DNA from: an uncultured Nitrososphaerota archaeon
Lineage (GTDB): Archaea; Korarchaeota; Korarchaeia; Korarchaeales; Korarchaeaceae
Length of the DNA: 43,056 nucleotides
Direction: 5' to 3'
Assembly (NCBI GenBank): GCA_964618805.1
Contig: CAZUBM010000019.1
Span: 1-43,056, forward strand
This document shows, piece after piece, positions 19,619 through 36,397 of this stretch (within the stretch, counting starts at the first letter, position 1; the number at the start of each line of letters is the position of its first letter). The notes under the pieces were generated by a model, which did no database searches, was not told where the DNA came from, and saw nothing but the letters and a program-made list of their open reading frames with translations. Made by a program: the position numbers and the translations under genes.

Positions 19619-20711
19619 AACTCCAGATAACTTACATCCCTTTCAGAAATCGCTTTTACATGCTCTAGAGTCGCTTGGGATTAGAGGACCAAGGATAAAC
19701 TTAGTAAACAATCCGTCTTTCGAAGTTAAGCGCAAAAGAGGAGTAATCCCCTTCATGAAGGATAAGTTGTCCTACCTTTCGGCAATCCTTAAGGAAATCG
19801 AAAGCCTCATAAGGGAAGAAGGTGTTGAAATTATCCACTCCTTTGGCACCTATCTGGCTGGACTGTCGGCATGCTTAGCTAGATCTCTTCTGGAGGTGCA
19901 GTACGTAGTCAGCGTGGATGGAGGAAGTCACATACACGATAAGATACCTAGAGCTAGGAACCTAACCAAAGCAATACTGACAAGCGCTGCTCGAATTACA
20001 TCGCCCAGTAAAGCCCTAGCCTCAGAAATCTCAGAATTCTTCGGAATAAATCCGGATAAAATAACTGTGATACCTCCAATTATTGAGCTTGGCAAGGAAA
20101 GGTTGTCGGAGAATGAAGCGGGGGAGAAGGTAAGGGAAAAACACAAAATACCAGAAGACTCTCCACTTATACTTTCCAGCGGAACTTTCTGGTACTCTCA
20201 AGGCCTTCACCTGCTTCTCTTAGGATCTAAAAAGGTGTTGGAACGCTTTCCACACTTCAAGTTTCTCATAATAGGGGATGGTCCTTTATACCACGAGTAC
20301 TTGGCCATGATACATAGACTTAACCTTCAGGAGTCCGTAATCCTTGTTAAGGGAGCGAGCTCGGAGGAACTTTCTTGTTATTACGCTGCTTGCGATTTGT
20401 TCGTTTACGTCCCAGTTTATGAAGATTTCGCCATTCCACTGCTAAGGGCTATGGCTTTTTCTAAGCCTATAATTGCTACTAGAACTGGAAGTATCCCTGA
20501 GATAATATCAGAGGGGAAAAATGGCGTTCTAATTGATCCATATGATATTCCAGCTCTAACAGAATCGATCATTAAGCTCGTCCAAGATGAAGAGCTTAGG
20601 AAGAAGCTGTCCTTAGAAGCTAGAAGAACTGCTGAAAATTTCAACCCTAAGAATGCAGCTAAATCAATGATCAAGGTTTATGAAAGCATCTTAGCAGAAA
20701 GATGGTGGTGA
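19587..20711 (+). CDS. Glycosyltransferase family 4 (GT-B)
   Basis: MKILFI start (GGAGG at 19573-19577), IIGDGP, CDLFV.VP.YEDFAIPLLRAMAFSKPIIATRTG.IPEII.EG.NG. Confidence 0.88.
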   Translation: MKILFITSSSRTPDNLHPFQKSLLHALESLGIRGPRINLVNNPSFEVKRKRGVIPFMKDKLSYLSAILKEIESLIREEGVEIIHSFGTYLAGLSACLARSLLEVQYVVSVDGGSHIHDKIPRARNLTKAILTSAARITSPSKALASEISEFFGINPDKITVIPPIIELGKERLSENEAGEKVREKHKIPEDSPLILSSGTFWYSQGLHLLLLGSKKVLERFPHFKFLIIGDGPLYHEYLAMIHRLNLQESVILVKGASSEELSCYYAACDLFVYVPVYEDFAIPLLRAMAFSKPIIATRTGSIPEIISEGKNGVLIDPYDIPALTESIIKLVQDEELRKKLSLEARRTAENFNPKNAAKSMIKVYESILAERWW

Positions 20712-20714
20712 GGC

Positions 20715-21827
20715 TTGGAAGATCTTGTTGTGGTAAAGGATTTGGTTAAAGAGTACGAATCTTATTCGATAAAAGGAATGGTTCCAATGACTTACTTCGG
20801 CCTATATCCTCTCTTCGCAAAGCTTGGCCTAAAACTAGGGAGCTATGAGAGGACCATAGTCAGGGCCTTAGATGGGATCTCGTTTAGGGCTAAGGAAGGA
20901 AGGATCTTGGGAATACTGGGACCGAATGCATCAGGCAAGACGACCCTACTTAAGATCCTGGCTGGGTTAACTACGCCCACCAGGGGTGAAGCCTATGTAG
21001 CTGGGCTTAACGTGATTGAAGATCACGATAGACTTCCCGAGGTCGAGATGTTTGTCCCTGGGGTTGCCCTAGTCAACTTGTTTGCAAGACCTGACCTTAC
21101 GGTCGTTCAAAATCTGGAGAGGTTTGCGGAGCTAGCCGAGATTAAGAAAGAAAGGGTAGATGAGATCATATCATTGGTAGGGCTAGAGGATGCTTCAAGG
21201 AAAAGGGTTCTTGAGCTTTCTACAGGACAATTGGGTCGTCTTGCAGTAGCCTTTGGTTTACTGCGAGAGGTGAAGGTTTACTTAATGGACGAGCCCTTTG
21301 TGGGCATCTCTCCCGAGGCGAGGGAATCTTTGTTCAGCTTCATCAAGGAGCTGAACCGCGAAAGGGGGGTTACGGTGCTTTATGCAACCCATATACTGGA
21401 GGAAGCTCAAGATTTCTGCCATGAAGTTATAATCCTTCATAAAGGAAGGATTATTGCGAGAGGAGAACCAAGGGAGCTTGTTAAGAGGCTTGGGCTTAAG
21501 GAAAGCGTGGATGTTGAGGTAAAGCTTACTGAAGACCCTGATTCCCTCCTTAAGAAGGTGAGAAAGATAAAGGGCATTGAGGAAGTCTTTGTGACCGAGA
21601 TTTCTTATCAAGAATTCCCTAAGATCTCCTTTACTCTAATAACTCCCGATAGCAGAGGTGTAATCTCCGATCTCGTGGATCTTCTGATCTCAGGAAAAAA
21701 CAAGGTGATTTACATGAGGGTAAGGGAGCCAAGCCTGAGGGATGTGTACATGGCTTTAGTTAAGGAGTGGGAGGAGCCAAAGGCTCTGAAGGTTGAGACC
21801 TGCCTTATAGTAACTCCGCCGAGGTGA
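20715..21827 (+). CDS. ABC exporter ATP-binding subunit
   Basis: Walker A GPNASGKT, signature variant LSTGQ, Walker B YLMDEP, H-loop ATHIL and C-terminal EPSL.DVY. Confidence 0.88.
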   Translation: MEDLVVVKDLVKEYESYSIKGMVPMTYFGLYPLFAKLGLKLGSYERTIVRALDGISFRAKEGRILGILGPNASGKTTLLKILAGLTTPTRGEAYVAGLNVIEDHDRLPEVEMFVPGVALVNLFARPDLTVVQNLERFAELAEIKKERVDEIISLVGLEDASRKRVLELSTGQLGRLAVAFGLLREVKVYLMDEPFVGISPEARESLFSFIKELNRERGVTVLYATHILEEAQDFCHEVIILHKGRIIARGEPRELVKRLGLKESVDVEVKLTEDPDSLLKKVRKIKGIEEVFVTEISYQEFPKISFTLITPDSRGVISDLVDLLISGKNKVIYMRVREPSLRDVYMALVKEWEEPKALKVETCLIVTPPR

Positions 21828-21831
21828 TTGA

Positions 21832-22689
21832 ATGAAGGAGCTTTTTAGGATCCTTAAGATCGTGAGGCACAGGCTGAAGACCTACACGATCAGGATATAC
21901 GTTTGGTGGATAGCATATATACCCAATGAGGTAATAAGCATCGCTCTGGCTCTCTCTTCTTGGTACTACTATACTGTGTTCGTCTCCCCTGAGGAAGCTG
22001 AAGCTTACATCGGAGGATTTCTTTCATATATTATAATAGGACTTATGTTGGCCCCTCTTTTCGAGATGGCGATGAGAAGCCCAGAAGAGGTGATGAGGGG
22101 CCTTTATTGGGGTTACACCTCTCTGGGCGGGTTTAAGATACCTCGGTGGGCTTATTACTACCTAGCCGGGGCTTCTAGGGCAGACGCTTTCGTAGGATCC
22201 CTAATATTCGAGTTTCTAGTCTTTCTTGTAAGGTTAGGGATATACGCTGGGCTTGGCACGGCCATATTCGGCTTACGCTTGAGTCCTGATCCTAATTTGG
22301 GAGCAGCTTTTCTTTTCACGCTCCTGGGATTCTTGGCAAGTCTTGCAATAGGCTTCATGGTGGCGAACACGTTCTGGTTGTTCTTACACTTTAGGGAGGC
22401 TGCGCTGAATCCCTTTGTCTGGTTCCTCACTCTTTTGCCAAACGTGGTGGGAGGTGTTTACTTTCCCATCGAAATCCTCCATCCAGCTCTAAAGGCGATA
22501 GGTCGTTTGCTTCCGCATTACTACGCCTTCGATGGAGTTAGAAAAGCGCTGTTAGCTGGGAACTCGTTGGCTCAATTAAGACATTTGCTTCCTCCTTTGC
22601 TCTTTTACACAACTCTTTTGCTCCCACTAGGTATACTTAGCTTCAAATACTTCGAGAGGTACATGGTGTACAAGGCAAAGAAGATCTAA
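21832..22689 (+). CDS. ABC-2 type exporter permease
   Basis: About 6 TM segments and GGVYFPIE.L...L..I..LLP.YYA.DG.R (ABC-2 C-terminal pattern). Confidence 0.85.
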   Translation: MKELFRILKIVRHRLKTYTIRIYVWWIAYIPNEVISIALALSSWYYYTVFVSPEEAEAYIGGFLSYIIIGLMLAPLFEMAMRSPEEVMRGLYWGYTSLGGFKIPRWAYYYLAGASRADAFVGSLIFEFLVFLVRLGIYAGLGTAIFGLRLSPDPNLGAAFLFTLLGFLASLAIGFMVANTFWLFLHFREAALNPFVWFLTLLPNVVGGVYFPIEILHPALKAIGRLLPHYYAFDGVRKALLAGNSLAQLRHLLPPLLFYTTLLLPLGILSFKYFERYMVYKAKKI

Positions 22690-23086
22690 TAGCAAATGGA
22701 TTTATTAGGTTTAAGTAAAGCTCAAGTTTAGATGCATGAGCAAGAGTTGAAGAAGGAGGTAACAGACCTTCTGGTTAAGGCTGAGGACAAGGGGAAGATC
22801 GGCTCATTCAGCCATGCCTAAAGCAGGAGTCAACGCTTTGACGAAGATGTTTAAAGTCCTGCATAAGCTCAGTCTCTACAAACCACCATCAGTGGGCCAC
22901 GAAGGAAGTAGAAGAGTTCCTCAAAAGGACCGTTGGAGAATATGAAAGCCTGGAAGAAGCTATTTCTGCCCTTGAAGAACTAAGAAGAATGGTGCATGGA
23001 GTTAATGAAAGAATTAGTCAAGATAACCTTGATTACAGGACGAAGATGTTGGTGGAGTGGATGTGATAAAAAGGGTTATGAGTTAG

Positions 23087-23143: not shown

Positions 23144-23767
23144 TCAGCAGATCTCTAGTATCTTTTTACCCTTCAACCTCTCAGGACGATAAAGGGGATG
23201 GGCCAAGCAGAAGTCAACTCCCTCAAGAAGTTTCAATTTATCCCATCTCGGTGGACTTGCTTCTTTTGAGGCGGGCATCCACATTAAATGGATTTTAAAG
23301 CACTCATCCCTGTGCTTCTCCTTATGCTTAACGTTTATGGAATCTATTGACGTGAAGCCAAGCTTTTCTATATGCTCTTTCTTTAACCAAGGACTCCAGT
23401 GATCTTCCAAGGCTATTGTAGCAAACCCCTTTGCATTCTTCTCCCTTTGTATCATGAAATTAAGAAGCATCCTCCCGAAACCATGACCTTTTGCTTTTCT
23501 TAATACCCAAATACAATTCATCACGATTATACCATCTCCAAAGATTGGATAGTAAGAAGCCTCTGCTGGAGCATATTCTATCTGACCAACCACCCCCTTG
23601 TCAAAAATTAGTAGAACTTTGTGAAAACCTTTAGGAACGGCTTGATCCAAGTATGTGCTCCTCTTCCTGTATCTTCTAAAAGGGAGAGGAGCAAGACATC
23701 TGTAAAGGTATTTTTCGTATTCATTGCGTCCAATTATATCGATCAGGTTAATTTTATGGTTTGACAT
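23144..23767 (-). CDS. GNAT-family acetyltransferase (YoaP-like)
   Basis: GQIEYAP.E, MNCIWV..KAKGHGFGRMLL and KLGF. ATG 23767 is taken as the likely start; the ORF track starts at 23821. Confidence 0.7.
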   Translation of the reverse strand: MSNHKINLIDIIGRNEYEKYLYRCLAPLPFRRYRKRSTYLDQAVPKGFHKVLLIFDKGVVGQIEYAPAEASYYPIFGDGIIVMNCIWVLRKAKGHGFGRMLLNFMIQREKNAKGFATIALEDHWSPWLKKEHIEKLGFTSIDSINVKHKEKHRDECFKIHLMWMPASKEASPPRWDKLKLLEGVDFCLAHPLYRPERLKGKKILEIC

Positions 23768-23851
23768 CGTTCGATCATGACATGCTATCCTAAAAGACTT
23801 GCTTCCATGGAATACCAGCATCTTAAAGATGGAAGACTTGCTTATCGTGAA

Positions 23852-24616
23852 CTACTCATATTTCAAGTCCTTCTTAAGTGCTTGTAAGATCCTTTTTGTC
23901 ACTTCCTTGACTAATCTTTCGGCAAACTCCTTTGACGCAAGCCTTGGATCACCTATTCCTCCTGTAGGATATCTCTCATCGAAGTAAGTTAGGATCTTGG
24001 TTGATGGGTAGGCCTTGTCTCTAGGAGGTCCTCTGTACTCCTGCTCTCTCATCTTTTCCTCTCTTACCAACTCAGGCCTAATTAGCATAACCATGCTGGT
24101 TTCATAGAAGCCAGAATGTCCATATGGGATTTCTTTGCCATATTCTTCAATTAGGTCCCTTGCAAACTCAGTCCAGTGAACAAAGTATGTTTTCAGGCCA
24201 AGTTCTCTTTCAATTCTCAGCAATACAAGTTTAATTGCCTGTATATTCCCACCATGAAAGTTCATCACGAGTAAACGCCTGGCTCCATGTTTTTTCAGGC
24301 ATAGGGCTATTTCATAAATCAGGTTCATGTAGGTCTCGTCTTTCAGACTGATGGTCCCTGGAAAGTGAATATGGTGTTCAGAGAGGCCATATTTTAGGGT
24401 TGGAAGAACCACAAATTTTAGATCTTCTGAATTTTCTGCAAGATATTTTGTAAGAAACTCTGCTCTTATGCTATCGGTTGATAGAGGAAGGTGAAGGGAG
24501 TGCTGCTCAATACTTCCGGCTGGTAGAACCACAAAATCGGCTTCTTTAATCGCTTTACCGGCTTCTTCTGAGGTCATCTCCTCAAGAAGAACTTTTCGGT
24601 CCATGAGAGAGACCAT
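23852..24616 (-). CDS. Creatininase/MftE-family amidohydrolase
   Basis: LP.GSIEQH..HLPL.TD, S.HH..FPGTISL, N.HGGN, HSG.YETS and G..GDP..AS.E. Confidence 0.88.
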   Translation of the reverse strand: MVSLMDRKVLLEEMTSEEAGKAIKEADFVVLPAGSIEQHSLHLPLSTDSIRAEFLTKYLAENSEDLKFVVLPTLKYGLSEHHIHFPGTISLKDETYMNLIYEIALCLKKHGARRLLVMNFHGGNIQAIKLVLLRIERELGLKTYFVHWTEFARDLIEEYGKEIPYGHSGFYETSMVMLIRPELVREEKMREQEYRGPPRDKAYPSTKILTYFDERYPTGGIGDPRLASKEFAERLVKEVTKRILQALKKDLKYE

Positions 24617-24883: not shown

Positions 24884-26080
24884 TTAAACACCGAAAAGAG
24901 CAGCGGTAATAGCGCTTGAGAGTATTGTAAGGAAGGTAACGGGTAGCAAATATCTGTAGACCTTGAGCATGCTAGCTCCAAAGTATTCGCTTGTAAGTGT
25001 GTAACAAGCATGTAAAGGAGATACAACATATCCTAGTATGGAACAAGTGAGTATAATCCCGGTCTCTAATGAACCTAAGCTAATAATGTTGGTAAACAGA
25101 GAGATAGAAAGAGCAATTGTACCAGTTGGTGTTCCAAGAATAAAGCCAAGGATTGATGGGACTAGCACGAGAAGCAAGATTGTTGGAACGCTACTTTCAC
25201 CTATTAATGAAGCTATTTTGATCGTCACACCCGAGGCCTCTACGGTTGCCCTATACACCATCACCCCAAGTCCTACAAGAATCATTTCAGGTAAATGGGC
25301 TTCCTTCAAAGCCTTCTTAAAATGTTCAAATTCTAATTGCCTTATTGACCATAAGAACACTATTGCAAGCAAAACACCTGCTATTATTAGCCATCTCCTT
25401 ATTATACCAAATAAGGCCACTAGTAAGATTGGAAATATGGCCTTTTCCAAGTCTTTCCTCGAAAATCTCCTTTCAACCTTCTCTTCATGTTCTTTAGATC
25501 CAATAACAAGCCATACTGCGTGCCCTACAAGCACAGATGTAATGAAAACTGGCAGCTGTACTAGGATCAAAGGTTTCACATCTATTCCAGCCAGATATGA
25601 AGCTAATAAAAGGCTCGTGCCAACTGGATAAATGAAGAAGACTACGTGTCTGAACCAAAGGTTAATGAAGGTCTTCTCCTCCGCATTTAACCTAAGTTCA
25701 TTGCCTACTGCATCAACTACTGGTGCAGACATTAGGGCTCCACCTAAAACTGGTAAAAGGCCGAACATAGCTGGAACTAGCTCCATAACAAGTCTATCGC
25801 TTGGTAAAGCTCCTCTTAAACCATTTGAGAGCTCTTCTAAAAGGCCAGTGACCTTGTATATGGCTCCTAATAGGGCAATTAGAGCAACTGCTGCGGTCAA
25901 TTCTAGCGTCTTTCTGTCTAAGAGAGTCCTAATTAGAGTGCTAGTGAAACTCATGGGAGTTAAGGTAGTAAGCCCCAGAACTAGAGAACCTACAAAAAGA
26001 GCTAGACCTATTCCTGCTCTTCTCAGTACAATGATGAAAATTAAGACAAGAGACGCAAGTAGACCTAGTATTTCTGGCAA
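24884..26080 (-). CDS. DUF401-family multi-pass membrane protein (putative transporter)
   Basis: PA..GLLPV.GGAL.SAP, NLWFRH and SPLH.C..LT.EYF, with about 11 TM segments. Confidence 0.75.
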   Translation of the reverse strand: MPEILGLLASLVLIFIIVLRRAGIGLALFVGSLVLGLTTLTPMSFTSTLIRTLLDRKTLELTAAVALIALLGAIYKVTGLLEELSNGLRGALPSDRLVMELVPAMFGLLPVLGGALMSAPVVDAVGNELRLNAEEKTFINLWFRHVVFFIYPVGTSLLLASYLAGIDVKPLILVQLPVFITSVLVGHAVWLVIGSKEHEEKVERRFSRKDLEKAIFPILLVALFGIIRRWLIIAGVLLAIVFLWSIRQLEFEHFKKALKEAHLPEMILVGLGVMVYRATVEASGVTIKIASLIGESSVPTILLLVLVPSILGFILGTPTGTIALSISLFTNIISLGSLETGIILTCSILGYVVSPLHACYTLTSEYFGASMLKVYRYLLPVTFLTILSSAITAALFGV

Positions 26081-26213: not shown

Positions 26214-27422
26214 CTAGTAAAGAAGATAGTCCTGTCTTTCCATCTGGAACTCCTCAGAGGAAATCTTCGCTTCATCATAAAGCTCAAACGGGTCAGATCC
26301 TTCTTGAAGGGCTTTCCTAACCTTATCGGTGCCAGCAAGGCAGTCGAAATAGTATCCTCCTTTAGGTCTTCTCATCCACTCAAACTTATCCGGGTTCTCG
26401 CTCATTACCTCACTTAACAAACAAAGAGCTACTAGAAACGGTTTAAAGGTTTCTCTATCTGTTATATGCAATTGAACGCCTCTACACTCCTTTCCAGTGT
26501 ATTTAGAGAAGGTAGGCACAAATCTTGCCTCTCTGAAGAGCACTCCCTCTAGGTCAAGGTCTCTAAGCCTATTGACCAATTCCCTCCCATCTATCCAAGG
26601 AGCTCCTACTATTTCAAATGGTCTAGTTGTTCCTCTTCCTTCGGAAATGTTAGTTCCTTCGAGAAGAACCATTCCAGAGTACACCAAAGCTGTGTCCAAA
26701 GTAGGAATGTTTGGAGACGGCAGGACCCATGGAAGTCCTGTTTGATCAAACCACATACTCCTTTCCCAGCCCTTCATAGTTACAACCCTTAGATCGGCTC
26801 CTATTCCATGCTTTTCGTTGAAGAACAAAGCTAGCTCTCCAATAGTCATTCCATGCCTCATAGCTACAGGTAGCATGCCCACAAATGACCTAAACTTCAT
26901 GTCAAGGACATAGCCCTCAACCTTCAAGCCATTAATTGGGTTTGGCCTATCTAGAACTATGTAAAGCTTGTCAAGCTTTGCTGAGGCTTCCATGCTTAAA
27001 GCCATAGTCCATATATAGGTGTAAACTCTAGTTCCAACGTCCTGAACATCAAATATAAGAGCCTCCACGTCTTCCAAACTCTCTGTTAGAGGAGCTCTGG
27101 CTTCTTTAGCCAGAATCGAGTCTACCACATACTCTGGCCCCTTTGCTTGACCAACTGGCCTATAAAGGCTTTTTATGGGAACACCTGTCTCTTCATCAAA
27201 TTCATCTTCTACATATTCACCCGCCTGCAAAGATCCCCAAAAGCCGTGTTCTGGTGCAAAGATTGCGACTAGATCAACGTTTGCTCTTGAAACCAGCAGG
27301 TCCTTTAAATGAACGAGTTTAGAATTAACTGCCGTATAGTTCGTAATGATACCTACCTTCATGCCCTCAATCAGGTTTATTTCCTTCTGAAAGAAGACCT
27401 CCAGACCTGTCTTAACCTTCAT
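26214..27422 (-). CDS. namZ: Exo-beta-N-acetylmuramidase NamZ (DUF1343/YbbC family)
   Basis: FAPEHGF.G, FDVQDVGTRVYTY, LDRPNPI, RHGMTIGELA, PSPNIP and EGTN.SEGRGTTRPFE..GAP. Confidence 0.9.
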   Translation of the reverse strand: MKVKTGLEVFFQKEINLIEGMKVGIITNYTAVNSKLVHLKDLLVSRANVDLVAIFAPEHGFWGSLQAGEYVEDEFDEETGVPIKSLYRPVGQAKGPEYVVDSILAKEARAPLTESLEDVEALIFDVQDVGTRVYTYIWTMALSMEASAKLDKLYIVLDRPNPINGLKVEGYVLDMKFRSFVGMLPVAMRHGMTIGELALFFNEKHGIGADLRVVTMKGWERSMWFDQTGLPWVLPSPNIPTLDTALVYSGMVLLEGTNISEGRGTTRPFEIVGAPWIDGRELVNRLRDLDLEGVLFREARFVPTFSKYTGKECRGVQLHITDRETFKPFLVALCLLSEVMSENPDKFEWMRRPKGGYYFDCLAGTDKVRKALQEGSDPFELYDEAKISSEEFQMERQDYLLY

Positions 27423-27426
27423 ATCC

Positions 27427-29058
27427 CTAAACCCCCGGGATAATCCCGTGTCCCCTCGGGAACATTCCTTGTATGGAAACAGGAAGTTTTCCTTTTGGCT
27501 TGATTTTTCCTAACAAAACATCAATCAAAGCTTCTTGCATCGGTTCATGATAGTCATATGTTACTAAATGATTTTTAACCTCAGGAAAGGCCAGTATGTC
27601 ATATGGAGTTCCAAGCGAGATTACAATAAGGCATTTGTCCTTCTTATCAACAAGTTCATTTAGCTTTCTCACCAACTTAACCTCCTCGGGATACCTTAGA
27701 GCCTCCCACGTACAAATGATGATAAAATCGGCCTTCAAAACGTGCTTAGTGGATCCTTCCAACACCTCCTCTGCTATCTCCTCTTCAAAAAAGATTTCCT
27801 CAACATCAACTCCCTTAGACGCCATTTTTTCGCCTATGGTTGAGGAACTCTCTCCAGTTTCAGTGAGTTTCTTTATTCTCTTGGGGCACACGACTAATGC
27901 TTTGGATAAACCTTCTCTCACCATTGGAAGACATCTTCCATTCAACTTAACTAGAGTGATCGATTCCTCACATATCCTCTTTTCCAAATCAAAGAATTTT
28001 TCAAAGTTCGGCCTCTCCTTCTTCGCCATAGAAGTTCTCTTCTTCAGATTCATGATCCTTAGGAGGGATTCTGCTATCCTCTCCTTCGAGAGATCCCCCC
28101 TCTTGACAGCCTTTATAACAAAATCGATTGCAGCCATTTGCTCCTCAAAATCCCTGCATATCAGAGCCATGTCTTCCCCGGCCTTTATTGCAAGCAAGCA
28201 TGCTTCAGCCAGCGAGTAACTCTTGCTAACAGCCCCCATAAGTAGATCATCTGACAAAACTGCTCCACGAAAACCAAGCTCTCCCCTCAAAGTTCCTTCT
28301 ATTACCTTTCTTGATAGAGTAGCAGGCATTTCTGGATCTATTCCTGGTACTACGACATGGGAAGGCATTATGGCCTCCACACCCTCATCTATTGCCTCTA
28401 TAAAGGGGAGAAATTCTCTCTCCCAGAGAACATCTAATGGAATGTCTAAGACAGGGAGATCGACATGTGGATCTATCGAAGCGGCCCCTATTCCTGGAAA
28501 ATGCTTGGCGACAGCTATAACCCCCGATTTCCTTAATCCAGCTATCATGGCTCTTCCCATTTTTGATACATAAATTGGATCATCTCCAAAGGACCTGACC
28601 CCTATTGATGGGTTCGTCTTATCAAGTATTATGTCAAGAACAGGGGCCAAGTTTACATTAATCCCAAACCACCTTAGCTGCTCTCCAATAGCCTTGCCTA
28701 CAGAGTAGGCTTTTTTCAGCGAATAAGTTGCTCCTAAAGCCATGTTTCCCGGAAAAACCGCAAATCCTTTCCTTATCCTTGCAACTAGGCCCCCTTCTTG
28801 ATCTATTGAGATTAGAAGAGGCGTTCCGGTCAACCTAATGGAAAGTTCGTTTGCCTCGGATATTAGTTCCCTTAACTGTTCCCCTGAATCTACATTTCTC
28901 GAGAAAATTATTATCCCTCCAGGTTTCAGCTCTTCTAATAGTTCCTTTAGCCCTTCCTCCATCTTCTTTCCATTAAAACCTAGCATAAAGAGCTGACTCA
29001 CTCTGTCCTTTAACGACATCTTCGAAACAGACCTTACTGGATCCCAAATCTCACTCAA
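27427..29058 (-). CDS. nagZ: Beta-N-acetylglucosaminidase NagZ (GH3, two-domain)
   Basis: IDQEGG.V.R, APVLD, RSFG.DP, KHFPG.G....DPH (Asp-His dyad) and SDDL.M nucleophile. Confidence 0.9.
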   Translation of the reverse strand: MSEIWDPVRSVSKMSLKDRVSQLFMLGFNGKKMEEGLKELLEELKPGGIIIFSRNVDSGEQLRELISEANELSIRLTGTPLLISIDQEGGLVARIRKGFAVFPGNMALGATYSLKKAYSVGKAIGEQLRWFGINVNLAPVLDIILDKTNPSIGVRSFGDDPIYVSKMGRAMIAGLRKSGVIAVAKHFPGIGAASIDPHVDLPVLDIPLDVLWEREFLPFIEAIDEGVEAIMPSHVVVPGIDPEMPATLSRKVIEGTLRGELGFRGAVLSDDLLMGAVSKSYSLAEACLLAIKAGEDMALICRDFEEQMAAIDFVIKAVKRGDLSKERIAESLLRIMNLKKRTSMAKKERPNFEKFFDLEKRICEESITLVKLNGRCLPMVREGLSKALVVCPKRIKKLTETGESSSTIGEKMASKGVDVEEIFFEEEIAEEVLEGSTKHVLKADFIIICTWEALRYPEEVKLVRKLNELVDKKDKCLIVISLGTPYDILAFPEVKNHLVTYDYHEPMQEALIDVLLGKIKPKGKLPVSIQGMFPRGHGIIPGV

Positions 29059-29066
29059 ATCGACAC

Positions 29067-30167
29067 CTACCTCTTCACTATAGATCCAGCAACAGCGTTG
29101 TGGAACAAAGGCCTGAACTTAAGGATCATCTCGTTCTCCCTCGTTGGATGGACCCTATTAGTTAGAAGGATGACCAAGAGCTTCAACTTAGGATCAATCC
29201 ATATCGATGTGCCTGTAAAGCCTGTATGACCATATGCCTTCATGGAGAGCAAGTCTCCGCTCGAAGTGACACCTCTTGAGTTAATCAGCCAGCCTAAACC
29301 CCTTCTGGCTCCCAGACCTTTAGTATGGTTCTTTGTCATCTTCTTAACGGTTAGAGGGCTAAGTATCCTGACATCGTCGTACTTCCCCAAATTTAAGAAC
29401 ATCTGAGCGAATATTGCTGCGTCAAAAGCCTTTGAGAAAAGGCCTGCATGTCCTGCTACCCCGCCAAGCGCAAATGCTCTTTCATCGTGTACCTCACCAA
29501 TGAGAACCCTGCCTCTCCACTTACAAAATTCTGTAGCAGCTATCCTCCCCTTAAGGTGATCTGGAGGATTGAACATAGTATCTTCCATCCCTGAGGGGAG
29601 GAATATGTTCTCACGAGAGTAGACATCTAGAGGTTTTCCACTTACCTTCTTTACAATCTCGCCTAGTAGGATGTATCCCAAATCACTATATATTACTCTC
29701 CTTCCTGGCTCGCATAGTTGTTCTGAATTAAGAATAGCCTTAATGATGCCCTCTTTTCCAAGTTTGTGTACTGGTTTGAAAGGAGGAAGGCCCGAGGTGT
29801 GGGTTAGCAAGTGCCATATGGTAACCTCCTTGTAACGCCACTTTGCCTCTGGGAAGTAATCAATTACCCTTTCTTTGAGGGTTAGAGTACCCCTTTCAAC
29901 AAGGGTCATTATTGAAGTTGCAGTTGCCATTACCTTCGTCATGGAAGCCATGTCGAATATGGTGTCCTTTGTCATCTCTCTCGTAAAAGGCGTCTTAACA
30001 GCATAACCAAACGCTTCATGAGCTACTATGACTCCTTTTCTCGCTATCAAATAAACAGCTCCTGGAAAAGCTCCTTTGTTGATCCAGTCAAGGGTTAGCT
30101 CTTTTAGACGTTTTAGTCTTGCTGGATCCATACCAACATCTTCTGGGGAGCCATATTCTAACTTCAT
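29067..30167 (-). CDS. amiE: Beta-lactamase-fold serine hydrolase, AmiE/YbbE-like (MurNAc-L-Ala amidase candidate)
   Basis: SxxK (ASMTK), LLTHTSG, YSD.GY, GEVHD..A..LGG.AGHAGLFS, GHTGFTGTS and LTNRVHP. It lies directly upstream of nagZ-namZ. Confidence 0.72.
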   Translation of the reverse strand: MKLEYGSPEDVGMDPARLKRLKELTLDWINKGAFPGAVYLIARKGVIVAHEAFGYAVKTPFTREMTKDTIFDMASMTKVMATATSIMTLVERGTLTLKERVIDYFPEAKWRYKEVTIWHLLTHTSGLPPFKPVHKLGKEGIIKAILNSEQLCEPGRRVIYSDLGYILLGEIVKKVSGKPLDVYSRENIFLPSGMEDTMFNPPDHLKGRIAATEFCKWRGRVLIGEVHDERAFALGGVAGHAGLFSKAFDAAIFAQMFLNLGKYDDVRILSPLTVKKMTKNHTKGLGARRGLGWLINSRGVTSSGDLLSMKAYGHTGFTGTSIWIDPKLKLLVILLTNRVHPTRENEMILKFRPLFHNAVAGSIVKR

Positions 30168-30228
30168 CAGTACCCTTCATTTCGCTCATCGGAAACTATT
30201 AAGTGATCTCTGGTCGCTGAATCCTTAC

Positions 30229-30996
30229 ATGGTTGACAGAGTGTTGTTTGATGTTGACGGGGTTTTAATTCGAAATCCATACAAGAAACTAATATTTCCT
30301 GAAGTAGCTCGAAGGCTAGTTGAAAAAGAGAAAGTTCAAGAATTTGTAGGCCTGATGATGAAGGAAAGCATTAGAAGGATAAGAGAAGGCAAGTTGGTCG
30401 ACGCATACAACTGGGATGACATAGTTAGAGCTGTAAGTAGGAGGATAGGTGTTAAGGGTAATGTGTCGGTAGCAAACGTCGTCGTAGAGGTTTGTTCGTC
30501 CACTGCTAAAATAGAAGCCTATCCAGATGCCATTCCAACTCTTTTAGAGCTTAAAAGCAAAGGGATTGAGCTTATCGCCTTGACTAACGGATTCTATGAT
30601 ATAGTAACTCCAGTTATGAGGAAAGCCGGAGTATTAGAGCTATTAGATGATTTAATAACACCGGACAAAGTTGGTGCTGCAAAGCCCTCTTTGAAAATCT
30701 TTCTAGTTGCAAGCGAAGGTGCGATGGAGCCTCTCTTTGTTGGGGACAATGTTTCAGTAGACATATGCGGAGCGAATTTTGCTGGCATATCTTCTGTTTT
30801 GTTATGGAGAGAGCTTCCAGAAGAGCTAAGTGTGGATCCTAAGGAGAGAGCAGCTAAAGCTAACGCTCTCGGATTAATTCAAGAGAAGCTGATGAGTGAA
30901 AGCACCTCTTTTTTAGCGCTATCGCAGACATGTGTTCCAGACTTCTTAATTCGAAGTCTAAAAGAGTTGATCCGAATAGTTGAGAGAATCAATTAG
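30229..30996 (+). CDS. HAD-superfamily hydrolase
   Basis: FDVDGVL (motif I), LTNG, KP and VGDN...DI.GA..AG. Start set at ATG 30229 because the longer ORF overlaps the amiE-like gene. Confidence 0.85.
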   Translation: MVDRVLFDVDGVLIRNPYKKLIFPEVARRLVEKEKVQEFVGLMMKESIRRIREGKLVDAYNWDDIVRAVSRRIGVKGNVSVANVVVEVCSSTAKIEAYPDAIPTLLELKSKGIELIALTNGFYDIVTPVMRKAGVLELLDDLITPDKVGAAKPSLKIFLVASEGAMEPLFVGDNVSVDICGANFAGISSVLLWRELPEELSVDPKERAAKANALGLIQEKLMSESTSFLALSQTCVPDFLIRSLKELIRIVERIN

Positions 30997-31001
30997 CTCT
31001 G

Positions 31002-31190
31002 TTAGGGAAACTTCTTTGAAGCCTGCTCTCCACCAGAACCCCAGTTCTCTTTGGGTATGTCGTGTATTATGATAGTTACGGCCGAAGCTGGTACTCCAAC
31101 ATCTTCAAAGGCCTTTGTTATACCCTTTATCACCTTCTCCTTTAAGGATACCTCCCTACCAGCCCACCAAAACACGTGAACTACAGGCAT
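31002..31190 (-). CDS. 4-oxalocrotonate tautomerase-family protein
   Basis: 62 aa with catalytic Pro after Met, GR...K..VI..IT and V.III.D.P.ENWG.GG. Confidence 0.88.
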   Translation of the reverse strand: MPVVHVFWWAGREVSLKEKVIKGITKAFEDVGVPASAVTIIIHDIPKENWGSGGEQASKKFP

Positions 31191-31406
31191 ACAGGTCTAT
31201 GAATGAGCTTATAGCAGATACTTTAAACATTAATTCTAAAACTGGCGAATGAGACAAAGCTAGCCTAACTAGAGCTTAGTTAGTGCTGCTAAGAACAGTT
31301 TTTACAAAGATTCTCGCGTAAGACGATAGAGGAATTCTTTGAGAGGAATGTAAGACCTACACTCATTATTAATCTGTAACTTCTTACATTCTCATGAAGA
31401 GGAACG

Positions 31407-32381
31407 TTGAAGTTATTAGCTGGAATTGATGGCGGCGGAAGCAAGACTTTAGCTCTGATTGCAAATCATCAAGGTATAGTAATAGGCAGAGGGTCAGCTG
31501 GTCCTTCAAACCCTAATTTGGTCGGGATTAAAGGATCAGTTCAGAACATTAAGTCTGCTTTAATGGAGGCAATGGGCTTAAGCAAATTGAAGAGGATTAG
31601 CATCGCGGTTTTAGGAGTTGCTGGATCAGAAACTCAGAAAAAGCTTGTAGAAGAACTAACCAGATCTTTGGATTTTGTAGATCGGGTTGAGGTAATGAAT
31701 GACTCTTTCATATGCTTGGCAGCTGGAACATTGGGCAAGCCAGGCGTTGTAGTGGTCGCAGGAACTGGATCCATAACTCTGGCTCTTGACGATGAGGGGA
31801 AAGTAGCCAGAGCGGGAGGCTGGGGTTACTTACTGGAGGATGAGGGAAGCGGGTTTCAGCTCGGGAGAGAAGCTGTCCTAGAAACCTTAAGGTTCTTAGA
31901 AGGGAGAGCCGCCTACAGCAAACTTGTAGATGCGGTGCTCGAAAAATTGGAAGCAAAGGAGGTAAGTGACCTGCTATCATCAATATACGTATGCGAGAAC
32001 CCAGTCTTGATTCTTGCATCTCTCGCACCTCTTGTGGTCAAGCTTGCCGAGGGAGGAGATTCAGCTGCTATGAGAATAGTTAAAAAGGCTACAGAAGGAC
32101 TTGCCTCTTGTGTGGCATCGGTGATCTCTCGTTCCTCCTTTAGCTCGAGACCAATACCCGTGGTGCTCAGTGGAGGAGTTTTCAGCGGATCAAGCATCTT
32201 CCTGAAGACATTTAAGTTAAAGCTTAGCAAGCTAGTTCCAGATGCGGATGCAAGGCTTCTTAAGCTAGAACCGGTAGTCGGAGCGTTGATCCTAGCTTTT
32301 AAAAAAGCAGAACTTCTTAACGATCAGATTCTCAATAATTTGTTAGAATCCTATCGAAACGAAAGGAGGCAACCTTTATGA
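31407..32381 (+). CDS. BadF/BadG/BcrA/BcrD-family sugar kinase (GlcNAc/MurNAc kinase, MurK-like)
   Basis: GIDGGGSKT, ND, AGTGS and GGWG.LL.DEGSG. It overlaps murQ by 4 bp. Confidence 0.85.
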   Translation: MKLLAGIDGGGSKTLALIANHQGIVIGRGSAGPSNPNLVGIKGSVQNIKSALMEAMGLSKLKRISIAVLGVAGSETQKKLVEELTRSLDFVDRVEVMNDSFICLAAGTLGKPGVVVVAGTGSITLALDDEGKVARAGGWGYLLEDEGSGFQLGREAVLETLRFLEGRAAYSKLVDAVLEKLEAKEVSDLLSSIYVCENPVLILASLAPLVVKLAEGGDSAAMRIVKKATEGLASCVASVISRSSFSSRPIPVVLSGGVFSGSSIFLKTFKLKLSKLVPDADARLLKLEPVVGALILAFKKAELLNDQILNNLLESYRNERRQPL

Positions 32382-33235
32382 AAAGAGAAAAAGGCGAATC
32401 AGAAATCATGAAGGAACTAAAACGCCTTATATCAGAGAAAAGGCATCCTAAAACAGTGAACATAGATGAACTCAGCACAATGGAGATCCTAAGGATAATA
32501 AACGAGGAGGACAAGAAGGTGGCCTATGCTGTCGAGAAGGTACTGAAATCTGTAGAAAAAGCTGTAGAGGAGTACGTAAGAGCATTAAGGTCAGGAGGAA
32601 GGGTCTTCTATGTTGGTGCTGGAACTAGCGGAAGACTAGGAGTTATCGATGCTGCAGAGCTAATACCTACTTTCGGAATGGAGGAAGGGAGGGTTCAGGC
32701 CATCATTGCAGGGGGACCTGAGGCAATGTTCAGGCCTAAGGAGGGTGCTGAAGACGATGAGTTGGTTGGAGAGGAGGAGATGTTGAAGAGAGGGGTTAGT
32801 GAGAAGGACTTTGTTATAGGTCTGTCTGCCAGTGGAAGGACACCATTTGTGATAGGAGCCCTTAGGAAGGCGAGAGAGCTTGGAGCAAAAACCGCAATAA
32901 TCTCGGTAAATCCAGAATGCAAGGCTGGTAAATATGCTGATATCAAGATAATACCGATAGTTGGCGAAGAGGTCATCGCGGGTTCCACTAGGATGAAAGC
33001 AGGCACAGCCGAAAAGATGTTGCTAACGATGATGAGCACCGCTGCCATGATAAGGCTCGGTAGGGTGAAAAGCAATCTAATGGTAAATCTGCTTCCACTC
33101 AGTAGGAAATTGAGGGAAAGGGCAAAGAGGATCGTCATGGAAGCTACTGGTGTAGGATATGAGGAAGCTACTAAGATGCTGGAAAAAACAGGATATGACG
33201 TCGAAAAAGCCATAGAACTGATTAAATCCAACTGA
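32378..33235 (+). CDS. murQ: N-acetylmuramic acid 6-phosphate etherase
   Basis: IN.ED..V, YVGAGTSGRLG.IDAAE..PTFG, EGAED, SASG.TP, GSTRMKAGTA.K and NLMV...KL..RA.RI. Confidence 0.92.
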   Translation: MKREKGESEIMKELKRLISEKRHPKTVNIDELSTMEILRIINEEDKKVAYAVEKVLKSVEKAVEEYVRALRSGGRVFYVGAGTSGRLGVIDAAELIPTFGMEEGRVQAIIAGGPEAMFRPKEGAEDDELVGEEEMLKRGVSEKDFVIGLSASGRTPFVIGALRKARELGAKTAIISVNPECKAGKYADIKIIPIVGEEVIAGSTRMKAGTAEKMLLTMMSTAAMIRLGRVKSNLMVNLLPLSRKLRERAKRIVMEATGVGYEEATKMLEKTGYDVEKAIELIKSN

Positions 33236-33326: not shown

Positions 33327-34415
33327 ATGTCAGAACTACCAAAGGGTCTGATACCAAGAGTTGAAGTAAAACTCGAACTAAAGGGAAAAGCTATACTCAA
33401 TGATAGAATAGCAGCTGTCTTGGAGGGAATTGAGAAGTATGGATCTCTTCTTGCAGCCTCCAGGCGATCTGGCATTCCCTACTCAAGGGCTTGGGATGGC
33501 ATAGCTAAGCTTGAGAGAATCCTAGGTGACAAGGTCATCGAGCCCAAGAAGGGTGGGAGGAAGGGAGGAGGAGCAAAACTAACCCCACTAGGAAAAGCAA
33601 TCTTGGAAGAGTACCGCAGAATCAGGGCGAGAGTTGATAGGTGCGTCGAAGGCATTGCAAAGGGTATTTTAACTATAAAAAGCCTTCCAGATCTAGCCAT
33701 AGCAGGAAGCAACGATCATGCTCTAGAAATTTTGGTAGGATTGTTGAGAGAGAAATATCCCGAGATAGATGTTGAAATAGCTTGGATAGGATCTGCTGGA
33801 GGTCTTGCCTCTTTAATGTTAGAAGAAGCTGATATAGCGGGCGTTCATCTGCTTGATTTGGCTACAGGAACCTATAACTTACCCTATCTTGAAAAATACT
33901 GGTTGAATGGAAGAGTTAGGGTAATTAGAGGCTACAAGAGAGAAATAGGTCTAATAAGCAGGCCAGAAAACAGAGTTGAGGACATCAGCCTTCTTTTCGA
34001 GAGTAATCTGAAGTTCATCAATCGAAATCTGGGATCAGGGACTAGGGTTTTGCTGGAGTCCATCTTAATCAAGAAAGCTAAAGAGCGTGGAATTGATCCA
34101 AGCACCCTAAAAAAGAGGATAAGAGGGTTTGAAAGGGAAGTCAAGACACATATTGATGTAGCTAGAGCTGTTGCCAGAGGAGAAGCTGATGTTGGAGTAG
34201 CTCTAAGGTATGCAGCTGAAATCTACGGATTAAGTTTTACTCCCCTCGTTTGGGAGGATTATGATTTCGTTATATTGGAGTCAAGAATGGCAAAAAGTTC
34301 TGTAGAAGCCTTTTTCTCCATATTTTGTTCTAAAGAATTCAAAAGCTCCCTAGAAAATCTTTCAGGATATCAAATTCCATCTGATATGGGTCAGACCATC
34401 TACAAGCCTACTTGA
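33327..34415 (+). CDS. ModE-like wHTH fused to a periplasmic-binding-fold (molybdate/tungstate-sensing) domain; transcription regulator
   Basis: ModE N-terminus L..I..YGSL..A.R..GI.YSRAW..I..LE...G..GG..GGGA.LT. PBP-like domain GS.D, GS.GGL, AG.HL.D, FINRN.GSGTR and H..VA.AV..G.AD.G. Confidence 0.85.
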   Translation: MSELPKGLIPRVEVKLELKGKAILNDRIAAVLEGIEKYGSLLAASRRSGIPYSRAWDGIAKLERILGDKVIEPKKGGRKGGGAKLTPLGKAILEEYRRIRARVDRCVEGIAKGILTIKSLPDLAIAGSNDHALEILVGLLREKYPEIDVEIAWIGSAGGLASLMLEEADIAGVHLLDLATGTYNLPYLEKYWLNGRVRVIRGYKREIGLISRPENRVEDISLLFESNLKFINRNLGSGTRVLLESILIKKAKERGIDPSTLKKRIRGFEREVKTHIDVARAVARGEADVGVALRYAAEIYGLSFTPLVWEDYDFVILESRMAKSSVEAFFSIFCSKEFKSSLENLSGYQIPSDMGQTIYKPT

Positions 34416-34621
34416 GATTCAAACTAATAACGAACGAAAAGTAGTTCTTATCGAAACTGTTAAAGTCATAGTTTTAATATTACAACTAATTTTATAATAG
34501 TTAAAGACTCAACATTCTTCTCGTTAATCCCAAGGTCTGACTTCTAAAACAATTTTCTCAATCTGTTTTAAATAAGAATTGCTCTACTGGGACAATTGGT
34601 TCATTTCTAGGTGTATAAGTG

Positions 34622-36397
34622 ATGTGTGGAATATTTGGGTACATTGGGTTTAGAAGACTTGGTCCAACCATACTCGAAGGTCTTAAGAGGCTTGAATATA
34701 GAGGATACGACTCTGCTGGGGTTGCATTCATAAGTTCAGGTCTTCGTGTGATGAAAGATGCCGGAAAAATCGATGAGATAAGCCGAAAGTTCAATTTCAG
34801 CAAGATAGATGGAAAACTAGCCATTTCTCACACGCGTTGGGCAACTCATGGAGCAGTCACTCAGGTCAATGCACACCCCCACATTTCGTGCAATGGAAAA
34901 ATAGCCGTCGTTCACAATGGAATAATCGAGAACTATGTTGACTTGAAAAAAGAGCTTATTTCACTTGGTCACGAGTTCAGAAGCGAGACCGACACCGAAG
35001 TGATCCCCCACCTCTTAGGAGAATTCTACAGGAGAACCGGGGATCCCTTAGAGGCCGTATTCATGGCAGTACCTAGGCTGAAGGGAAGCTTTGCTTTCCT
35101 AGCTATCTTTGAGGATCACCCAGATAAGATCTTTGCCGTTCGCTATAAGTCACCACTCGTCATAGGACTTGGTAAAGGAGAAATGTTCGTAGCTAGCGAT
35201 GTCCCTGCCTTTCTGAAGTATACGAATAAGGTGATTTTCCTTGATGATATGGAAGTTGCTGTCATAAGTAAAAACTCTGTTAATGTTTATGACTCACTGA
35301 CAAGGGAAAGGGTAGATAAGAAAATCCATATTGTTCCATGGAGCGTGGAGGACGCAGAAAGAGGGGGCTATCCTCACTTTATGATGAAGGAGATTATGGA
35401 GCAACGCTATACGATAACTAGAGTACTTGGACAGGACGATAGGATAAAGAAAGCATCTAAACTCATCAAGGAGGCCGAGAAGGTATTTCTGATAGCTGCA
35501 GGTACTAGCTATCATGCATGTCTTGCTGCAAGTTATTGGTTTGCTGAAATCGCTGGCATCAATGCTAGAACAGTCCTCGCCTCAGAATTTCCCTATGTTG
35601 CAAATCTGGTTGACGACAAGACCCTAGTAATAGCTGTGTCCCAAAGCGGTGAAACAGCCGATGTACTTGAAAGCGTAAGAATGGCAAAGGAAAAAGGATC
35701 TAAGGTCTTAGGCATCATAAATGTGATAGGCTCAAGCCTCATGAGGATTAGCGACGCTTTTCTGACGATAAACGCAGGACCAGAGATCTGCGTGTTAGCA
35801 ACTAAGAGCTACACTTCTCAACTGGCCATCCTATACTTGCTAGCCAATGATCTTGTTGGTAGGCTTAAAAGAGCGAAGGAGGAAGTAAAAAAGACTGGAA
35901 CTTTAGTTTCACAGATGCTCGAGAAGGAAACTCTTCTAAACGAGGTTAAAAGAATTGCAGAGGATCTTTCCGACTCGAACCATATCTTCCTCATTGGTAG
36001 AGGAATAAGTTATGCAACTTCGCTCGAAGGTGCCCTCAAGATAAAAGAAGCGTCATACATTCATGCTGAGGGCTTTGCAGGCGGAGAATTAAAGCATGGA
36101 ACCCTTGCTTTGATCGAAGAAGGCACCCCTTGCATAGCTATTGTGCCAGAGGATGGGACTAAAGATCAGATCCTAGGGAATGCTACAGAGATCAAGGCTA
36201 GAGGTGGGTACATCATAGGACTGTCTCATGAGGAATATGAGGTTTTTGATGAGTTCATCAGAATTCCTTCAGAGACTTCCCTATCTCCAATAGTTATGAT
36301 AGTTCCTCTGCAGCTTTTGGCCTACTATCTTGCCTTGGAAAGGGGTTGTAATGTAGACCAACCAAGGAATCTCGCGAAGTCGGTGACTGTCTTGTAA
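34622..36397 (+). CDS. glmS: Glutamine--fructose-6-phosphate aminotransferase (isomerizing)
   Basis: M-CGIFG start, RLEYRGYDSAG, HTRWATHG, SQSGETAD, ELKHG and C-terminal D.PRNLAKSVTV. Confidence 0.96.
   Translation: MCGIFGYIGFRRLGPTILEGLKRLEYRGYDSAGVAFISSGLRVMKDAGKIDEISRKFNFSKIDGKLAISHTRWATHGAVTQVNAHPHISCNGKIAVVHNGIIENYVDLKKELISLGHEFRSETDTEVIPHLLGEFYRRTGDPLEAVFMAVPRLKGSFAFLAIFEDHPDKIFAVRYKSPLVIGLGKGEMFVASDVPAFLKYTNKVIFLDDMEVAVISKNSVNVYDSLTRERVDKKIHIVPWSVEDAERGGYPHFMMKEIMEQRYTITRVLGQDDRIKKASKLIKEAEKVFLIAAGTSYHACLAASYWFAEIAGINARTVLASEFPYVANLVDDKTLVIAVSQSGETADVLESVRMAKEKGSKVLGIINVIGSSLMRISDAFLTINAGPEICVLATKSYTSQLAILYLLANDLVGRLKRAKEEVKKTGTLVSQMLEKETLLNEVKRIAEDLSDSNHIFLIGRGISYATSLEGALKIKEASYIHAEGFAGGELKHGTLALIEEGTPCIAIVPEDGTKDQILGNATEIKARGGYIIGLSHEEYEVFDEFIRIPSETSLSPIVMIVPLQLLAYYLALERGCNVDQPRNLAKSVTVL

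Follow-up and report, generated by a model that had tools for sequence, protein, structure and literature searches.

Do archaea salvage N-acetylmuramic acid (MurNAc) from bacterial cell walls and, if so, by what route? The question is raised by contig CAZUBM010000019.1 (C19), which was analyzed as one window over its entire length of 43,056 bases and which belongs to a 2.18-Mb bin of 62 contigs (G000; assembly GCA_964618805.1). An initial annotation had read part of this window as a bacterial peptidoglycan salvage pathway in an apparent archaeon. We find that the cluster is real, archaeal and conserved, that its predicted function is the salvage of MurNAc or muropeptides, and that it forms part of a wider archaeal pattern. 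Judging from its gene content, the genus of G000 (g1; five genomes, G000 to G004, within a phylum set of 43 genomes) can probably process MurNAc-containing pieces of bacterial peptidoglycan by a functional route in the cytoplasm.

Gene content and conservation of the cluster

Five genes form the core of the locus:

29067..30167, minus strand: AmiE-like protein of the beta-lactamase fold, putative MurNAc-L-Ala amidase, opening the minus-strand operon (PF00144, 1.5e-63)
27427..29058, minus strand: NagZ, GH3 beta-N-acetylglucosaminidase (NF003740, 225 bits; cut-off 207)
26214..27422, minus strand: NamZ, GH171 exo-beta-N-acetylmuramidase (PF07075, E 3e-79; PF20732, E 3e-52)
31407..32381, plus strand: BadF-type sugar kinase, putative 6-kinase for MurNAc and N-acetylglucosamine (GlcNAc) (PF01869, 3e-37)
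32378..33235, plus strand: MurQ, MurNAc 6-phosphate (MurNAc-6-P) etherase (TIGR00274, 314 bits; cut-off 302)

The three hydrolase genes, on which open reading frames (ORFs) and family profiles agree, are adjacent and co-directional in the order amiE-nagZ-namZ, with gaps of 8 bp between nagZ and amiE and 4 bp between namZ and nagZ, just as they had first been annotated. The kinase gene overlaps murQ by 4 bp on the divergent strand, and the distance from the amiE start to the kinase start, given earlier as about 1.2 kb, was measured at 1.24 kb.

The catalytic motifs, previously noted as apparently intact, are so in all five proteins. NamZ, best matched in the Protein Data Bank (PDB) by 4k05 (3.6e-74), keeps the PEHG motif that occurs in 75 of 102 aligned NamZ rows; its glutamate, E58, corresponds to Glu92 in the available text of PMC8054146 when mapped by position offset rather than by direct alignment. 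NagZ carries KHFPGIGAASIDPH and SDD at positions 185 and 265 (KHFPG...D-x-H pattern and region of the Asp nucleophile), and its best PDB matches are 6k5j (1.4e-96) and Bacillus subtilis YbbD (3bmx, 6.5e-66). In the AmiE-like protein, SMTK75, YSD160 and HTG314 follow the SxxK, Yx(N/D) and (K/H)(S/T)G pattern of the beta-lactamase fold. The kinase has DGGGS and GTGS motifs and matches a hexokinase (2e2n, 1.1e-40), which we take to be that of Sulfolobus tokodaii, and a MurNAc/GlcNAc kinase (8zo3, 2.5e-38). MurQ, with 4s12 as its best PDB match (7.8e-82), contains the motifs GAGTSGR, DAAE and EGAED and keeps both conserved glutamates in comparison with 4s12 and 1nri; those of DAAE and EGAED are presumably the catalytic residues. 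On the best reading of these features, MurQ would convert MurNAc-6-P to GlcNAc 6-phosphate (GlcNAc-6-P) and D-lactate, and the kinase is predicted to phosphorylate MurNAc. That a kinase stands in place of a phosphotransferase system (PTS), as had been proposed, is borne out by PTS_EIIC (PF02378), which occurs in none of the five g1 genomes.

The N-termini of AmiE-like, NagZ and NamZ are hydrophilic and lack an h-region; none of the three has a leader peptide, in agreement with what had been seen at first. The control, an ABC transporter binding protein encoded in the same window (13103-13990), has a classic hydrophobic leader, which indicates that the lineage uses ordinary leaders. The AmiE-like amidase is the least certain of the enzymes. 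It is tied to the pathway by single ORFs of ~820-840 residues in which AmiE-like and NamZ domains are fused, found in four bacterial metagenome loci (L160, L178, L188 and L196). Some of these fusion ORFs start with hydrophobic N-termini, which suggests secreted bifunctional enzymes.

The core is flanked and interrupted by seven further genes:

23144..23821, minus strand: weak GNAT-like protein (weak PF13508 and PF00583), 30 bp downstream of the creatininase-fold gene
23852..24616, minus strand: genus-specific paralog of the creatininase-fold amidohydrolases (PF02633, 5e-62)
24884..26080, minus strand: divergent DUF401 membrane protein, candidate importer (PF04165; 12 transmembrane-like segments)
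30229..30996, plus strand: HAD-family phosphatase, divergent from amiE (PF00702, 1.5e-17; DVDGV motif)
31002..31190, minus strand: 62-residue 4-oxalocrotonate-tautomerase-like ORF (PF01361, 1.6e-10), within the 410-bp gap between the HAD and kinase genes
33327..34415, plus strand: regulator with ModE-type helix-turn-helix (HTH) and periplasmic-binding-protein-like (PBP-like) domains (PF12727, PF00126), 91 bp downstream of murQ
34619..36397, plus strand: GlmS, glucosamine 6-phosphate (GlcN-6-P) synthase, a neighbor from the amino-sugar pathway (TIGR01135, 717 bits), syntenic in G002

The HAD ORF opens at 30076, and M52 is its likely start (30229). No RpiR-type protein was found among the scanned window ORFs, the adjoining regulator being of the ModE-HTH and PBP-like type. 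A tRNA scan of the window found none, a sigma-70 promoter and terminator scan, a method ill-suited to archaea, returned fewer sites than in shuffled sequences, and a simple TATA-box regular expression gave nothing clear upstream of amiE and the kinase gene.

The host is an uncultured archaeon, and the assignment made at first is confirmed by a 16S marker, tetranucleotide profile, synteny and a native flank. The bin is estimated to be 93.7% complete and 3.4% contaminated, and an 827-base 16S fragment on contig C27 scores 745 bits against the archaeal small-subunit rRNA model RF01959. The genome was also divided into 283 windows of seven kb for a principal component analysis (PCA) of tetranucleotides; the six from C19, the cluster-bearing one among them, all plot near the center, at distances of 0.63-1.46 compared with a median of 1.75. 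Synteny is found with a 57-kb contig of another g1 species (G002:C13), where the genes for ABC binding protein, amidohydrolase, creatininase, DUF401, namZ, nagZ, amiE, HAD, kinase, murQ, regulator and glmS follow one another in this order and the proteins are 61-92% identical. The regulator that follows murQ is a native archaeal flank, present in 41 of the 43 phylum genomes with graded identity (91 and 75% within the genus, 49-37% elsewhere). Submitters labelled members of the genus as Thermoproteota, Nitrososphaerota or Candidatus Korarchaeota archaeon. The DNA is present in hydrothermal-vent metagenomes of two studies and in no RNA data set among those listed, and a 7,528-base Logan contig (run X1) bridges nagZ to glmS without a difference; since this run may be the source sample, the bridging is not independent support. 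The earlier view that such a host makes no MurNAc of its own agrees with MurB_C, which occurs in none of the five g1 genomes, so that MurNAc would be foreign to the genus.

Among the 43 phylum genomes, the five genes are distributed as follows:

NamZ: 5 of 43, all g1
MurQ over the cut-off: 3 of 43 (G000, G001, G002); the other two g1 assemblies end at a contig break where murQ is expected
Kinase: 2 of 43 (G000, G002)
AmiE-like ortholog: 5 of 43; elsewhere weak paralogs of 30-34%
NagZ, full-length: 4 of 43; missing in G001, with an 85-residue fragment in G018

All five genes occur within g1 only, and the recurrence of their order in the genus is far beyond chance. The whole locus is found in G002, and G003 and G004 keep HAD/amiE-nagZ-namZ up to the contig end; in G001 (L013, C179, 2073-2101), a gap of 28 bp without nagZ separates amiE from namZ. 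Orthologs of the HAD protein are 59-83% identical and confined to g1 (next best 37%), the creatininase-fold gene reaches 83-86% identity in both G002 and G004 (next best 39%), and the GNAT-like gene also occurs in G003. Because the module and these versions of the HAD and creatininase-fold genes are limited to the genus, the module probably entered the ancestor of g1, and its fully ameliorated composition indicates that the acquisition was not recent.

Related loci and the origin of the module

A MurQ tree was built from 120 listed matches, seven MurQs derived from fetched loci, and the window protein. Outside the genus, the best matches are labelled Thermoprotei and Thermoproteales (63-66% identity), followed by Bathyarchaeota (59-61%) and by Thermofilum, Brockarchaeota and Methanomethylicia (56-58%); the first named bacterium among the matches is a Clostridium, at 55%. 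All 17 archaeal-labelled MurQs fall in one 104-row clade (support 93), with labels of Thermoprotei, Bathyarchaeota, Brockarchaeota, Methanomethylicia and Korarchaeota, and none of the six bacterial-labelled rows falls inside it. The window MurQ lies in a 39-row sub-clade (support 98) together with rows labelled Thermoprotei and Bathyarchaeota. Many archaeal MurQs are already annotated as such in public records.

Among the metagenome contigs, those with the closest MurQs from outside the genus are L124 (65%), L125 (61%) and L126 (58%), which share a divergent core of leaderless proteins: AmiE-like and NamZ on one strand, kinase and then MurQ on the other. The AmiE proteins of these loci are 45-55% identical to that of the window, with the 55% match, to L124, extending over the full length, and a kinase directly upstream of MurQ is found in all three and in many further loci. 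L125 also encodes PurP, which we take to be an archaeal-type purine enzyme. Unlike the window, these modules are without NagZ, HAD and DUF401. L125 (2906-4583) and L126 (4068-5728) instead have a two-domain GNAT protein and a PIG-L-family deacetylase between the AmiE-like gene and namZ, and in L124 (7-2819) a DUF6785/DUF6784 protein and a GHL10 glycosyl-hydrolase-like protein flank the core. The PIG-L protein of L125 and L126 is likely a non-orthologous replacement of NagA. The window GNAT (23144-23821) was considered as a counterpart of the L125 GNAT and was not supported (BLASTP E 0.07).

A further locus, L027 (5.3 kb, GC content 0.63), is labelled Bathyarchaeota and packs a kinase, murQ, namZ, an Amidohydro_1 (NagA-like) gene, anmK and an M20 peptidase gene closely together. 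Its bin assignment is doubtful, since its MurQ groups apart from the archaeal-labelled clade and its NamZ could not be placed.

In the NamZ tree of 102 rows, the genus forms a clade with a Shimodaira-Hasegawa-like approximate likelihood ratio (SH-aLRT) support of 99, or 100 when P0010, the NamZ sister, is included; this clade has a long stem inside the bacterial radiation and no resolved sister. The NamZs of L124-L126 form a clade of their own (support 99). Uniting them with g1, a grouping named only after the tree had been seen, gives a tree that was not rejected by the approximately unbiased (AU) test (p-AU 0.83) and that outscores the tree from the quick free search.

The initial annotation had taken the source of the genes to be bacterial and had proposed gene trees to identify the donor of a horizontal transfer. 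These trees place MurQ in the archaeal-labelled clade and single out no NamZ donor; with the same core present on other archaeal-type contigs, the source need not be bacterial. A bacterial donor operon was sought among 78 bacterial or unlabelled NamZ loci, none of which has the order amiE-nagZ-namZ. As far as these sequence comparisons go, the locus did not arise by straightforward capture of a Bacillus-like operon. MurQ, and probably the AmiE-like gene too, would have come from a pool shared among archaea of the TACK group (Thaumarchaeota, Aigarchaeota, Crenarchaeota, Korarchaeota) and not directly from a Bacillus-like donor. The simplest reading is that an archaeal version of the module, ultimately of bacterial origin, moves among TACK archaea, and that g1 added nagZ, HAD and DUF401.

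Predicted route and competing explanations

The genes can be arranged into a six-step route, in which substrates, import and all that follows GlcNAc-6-P are predicted. Fragments released by other organisms would be imported, with the DUF401 protein, an elevator-type anion transporter, as the candidate carrier. NagZ would then take off the non-reducing GlcNAc, the AmiE-like amidase would remove the stem peptide from MurNAc, and NamZ would free the non-reducing MurNAc from MurNAc-GlcNAc. The BadF-type kinase would form MurNAc-6-P, and probably GlcNAc-6-P as well, and MurQ would turn MurNAc-6-P into GlcNAc-6-P and D-lactate. This chemistry is expected to take place inside the cell, because leaders and PTS EIIC are lacking and a kinase is present instead. 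FAD-oxidase_C enzymes, potential oxidizers of D-lactate, are present in all five g1 genomes.

The DUF401 gene lies directly downstream of namZ, at a distance of 133 bp, and adjoins namZ or lies within 2 kb of it in g1 genomes. The family occurs in 33 of the 43 phylum genomes; the window protein is only 25-28% identical to the DUF401 proteins of seven sister-genus genomes and shares no neighbors with them, which rules it out as a native ortholog. A 44% identical relative, P0129, is encoded on an ENA contig of 12,859 bp, equal in length and source to the contig of P0010, which suggests that DUF401 and NamZ are paired outside the genus as well. The AlphaFold2 (AF2) model of the window protein has a predicted local distance difference test score (pLDDT) of 89.3 and a predicted template modeling score (pTM) of 0.88. 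The best Foldseek matches of this model are sialic-acid TRAP transporters of the SiaQM type (8thi, 8y4w and 7qha; query template modeling score (TMq) 0.69-0.74, E about 1e-8), followed by ArsB, VcINDY and NaCT, and language-model (atlas) features place it near DctM, GntP and CitMHS (0.93-0.94). The protein has no other Pfam match up to E 10, and so no DctM, and neither DctP nor DctQ is found among the scanned window ORFs. The model superposes on the elevator-type M subunit of SiaQM, whose substrate is an N-acetylated acidic sugar of a size similar to MurNAc, but the two are only 14-17% identical and neither a Q subunit nor a periplasmic binding protein adjoins. We infer from the model that DUF401 is a candidate carrier for the import of an acidic sugar or fragment. 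An MFS transporter that stands beside DUF401 in G002 was discarded, its G000 ortholog (67%) lying on another contig, so that the link is not conserved.

Several observations weigh against this route. The AmiE-like protein scores 208 bits with the PBP4B model NF002968, under the cut-off of 385, the kinase resembles MurK no more closely than it does an archaeal hexokinase of broad specificity, and nagZ is found nowhere in G001, a 71%-complete genome. The trees were obtained by quick searches, and in the MurQ clade taxon labels are available for just 17 of 104 rows. Import is a weak point of the cytoplasmic model. Elevator-type carriers usually move small solutes; a carrier of this type would fit MurNAc well and disaccharide-peptides less well, and were DUF401 to import MurNAc only, the cytoplasmic exo-enzymes would be left without substrate. 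Nor does DUF401 adjoin MurQ at the remaining loci of archaeal type. Past MurQ, the search for nagA and nagB that had been proposed yielded no recognizable continuation: NagA over the cut-off, NagB and PIG-L are each absent from all five g1 genomes, and GlcNAc-6-P appears from gene content to have no recognizable consumer in the genus. Ten G000 amidohydrolases with weak matches to the NagA end were considered as a divergent NagA and rejected, being of deaminase, dihydroorotase/hydantoinase or dipeptidase types or unassigned. Searches of G000 by tblastn with the NagA-like protein and the AnmK of L027 gave no match, and without AnmK the anhydro-muropeptides are not covered. The secreted muramidases that had been called for were not found either, as no GH25 or GH73 enzyme occurs in the genus, and LdcA is present in two of the five g1 genomes, G000 not among them. 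With no GH25, GH73 or AnmK, the genus would be a scavenger of reducing-end fragments that other organisms set free, and not a lytic predator.

Candidates for the missing parts were sought in the same genomes. The creatininase-fold amidohydrolase that adjoins DUF401 is a speculative candidate for a stand-in, either for the missing deacetylase or as a peptide amidase. A stand-alone double-SIS protein on contig C5, a NagB candidate, has HAD, cytidylyltransferase and UDP-glucose dehydrogenase genes as neighbors. The small GNAT protein encoded after glmS was tried as GNA1, a maker of GlcNAc-6-P, and dropped, since it matches N-terminal acetyltransferases and RimI best. That the locus lies near glmS points to a connection with the amino-sugar pool of the cell itself.

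This last point leads to a variant that does not exclude the salvage of peptidoglycan fragments, and to which we give some, though clearly the lesser, credence: the same enzymes may serve amino-sugar salvage, with GlcNAc-6-P feeding the cell's own UDP-GlcNAc pool for glycoproteins or glycans. The position of murQ two genes upstream of glmS in G000 and G002 fits such a role, which would also explain the lack of NagA and NagB; PIG-L was likewise not found. The bacterial and archaeal route to UDP-GlcNAc runs via GlcN-6-P and GlcN-1-P. GlcNAc-6-P would still need a deacetylase or a GlcNAc-phosphate mutase, none of which was identified, the GNAT protein after glmS resembles N-terminal acetyltransferases and not GNA1, and D-lactate-type oxidases are present. 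In our judgment, the archaeal homologs are unlikely to have a different substrate in place of peptidoglycan, whether an archaeal glycan or some other amino sugar that is acidic or bears a lactyl ether. The incomplete downstream pathway and the separation of the archaeal MurQ clade from bacterial-labelled rows are compatible with this idea, and the accessible part of PMC6262408 argues that MupG-like proteins of archaea, which are without peptidoglycan, probably function otherwise, as the accessible literature assumes for recycling-enzyme homologs of archaea. Against it, five families that are specific to MurNAc handling, or typical of it, occur jointly and are conserved as a set, MurQ passes its equivalog cut-off with both conserved glutamates kept, NamZ keeps the glutamate of PEHG, and the genus lacks MurB.

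The hydrolases may instead be exported without leaders and act outside the cell, so that only the monosaccharides MurNAc and GlcNAc are imported, as would suit the DUF401 fold, which matches a small acidic sugar such as MurNAc. B. subtilis secretes its AmiE, NagZ and NamZ, according to the available text of PMC8054146. This arrangement seems quite improbable, given that no hydrolase has a hydrophobic N-terminus, in contrast to the binding protein of the window, and that NamZ is leaderless in its nearest bacterial relatives and in L124-L126 too. Bacterial contamination or a chimeric assembly would account for five families first described in bacteria on a contig of a metagenome-assembled genome (MAG) with 3.4% estimated contamination. 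That explanation is largely refuted, and we regard it as very improbable: 16S, composition, synteny and native flank agree, with the genome-typical profile of the contig, the shared native flanks on the 57-kb contig of another species, the graded archaeal identity of the regulator, the occurrence of NamZ in all four other g1 species, and Logan contigs, possibly from the same sample, bridging the junctions. We retain the cytoplasmic salvage of bacterial muropeptides as the preferred reading.

Other features of the contig were recorded alongside the cluster. Near the creatininase-fold and GNAT-like genes, positions 22766-23083 hold the frameshifted remnant of an M20 peptidase gene, with pieces 68-100% identical to an intact M20 gene at the matching place in G002; an intact paralog (58%) is on G000:C17. 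An S58 (DmpA-type) peptidase is encoded at 586-1674 (minus strand) and an Amidohydro_3 protein at 14903-16675 (plus strand; PRK09061, 178 bits, below the cut-off). Both families include enzymes that act on D-amino-acid substrates, which could bear on the use of stem peptides. A 1069-residue protein at 1779-4988 (minus strand) has only an N-terminal GNAT domain recognized, its other ~900 residues matching no family. The stretch at 17888-22689 (plus strand) encodes a radical SAM/SPASM enzyme with an N-terminal PqqD domain, a small PqqD/TrmB-like protein, a GT4 glycosyltransferase and an ABC-2 exporter pair, and looks like a peptide-modification cluster of the type for ribosomally synthesized and post-translationally modified peptides (RiPP-like).

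Implications and comparison with known systems

No description of NamZ, MurQ or peptidoglycan salvage in archaea was found in the open-access PMC and bioRxiv literature, and the accessible part of the NamZ paper makes no mention of archaea (PMC8054146); PMC10322874 proved to have no bearing on the question. The kinds of enzyme are known; what is unusual is that the host is an archaeon, that the layout does without leaders and a PTS, that NagA and NagB are missing, and that DUF401 is the candidate carrier. The locus and its TACK relatives suggest that archaea without murein retain a means of handling MurNAc in the cytoplasm and without a PTS. The gap at GlcNAc-6-P may be closed by a new deacetylase, and DUF401 is a transporter candidate from an uncharacterized family. 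It is tentatively hypothesized that a dedicated archaeal module for MurNAc or muropeptides, with leaderless AmiE-like and NamZ proteins encoded divergently from a BadF kinase and MurQ, is widespread in TACK archaea of hot and anoxic sediments, spreads among archaea and is completed by non-orthologous parts, namely a DUF401 importer and a creatininase-fold deacetylase in g1 and PIG-L in the Bathyarchaeota type. Much carbon and nitrogen in sediments is stored as peptidoglycan, the turnover of which is commonly ascribed to bacteria. If the hypothesis is true, archaea would be significant, overlooked consumers of bacterial cell-wall necromass.

The closest described counterpart in gene order is the B. 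subtilis operon murQ-murR-murP-amiE-nagZ-namZ, in which, as far as the available text of PMC8054146 goes, secreted AmiE, NagZ and NamZ strip peptide, GlcNAc and MurNAc off fragment ends, and MurNAc enters by the PTS transporter MurP before MurQ cleaves the lactyl ether. The likeness to this operon that had been claimed at first stands in part. Shared are the colinear order amiE-nagZ-namZ, its tight coupling, MurQ as the committed step and a sequential exo-lytic chemistry. In contrast, the kinase-murQ pair of the window is divergent from the hydrolases, which are leaderless and presumably cytoplasmic, a BadF-type kinase takes the place of MurP, there is no MurR, and the host is an archaeon without MurB in which NagA and NagB were not found. 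In its phosphorylation step, the locus resembles Clostridium acetobutylicum, where MurK (PDB 8zo3) and MurQ provide for PTS-independent phosphorylation of MurNAc: the window kinase is likewise a BadF/BcrAD-family ATPase with DxGGS and GTGS motifs beside murQ, although it matches 8zo3 (2.5e-38) no better than hexokinase 2e2n (1.1e-40).

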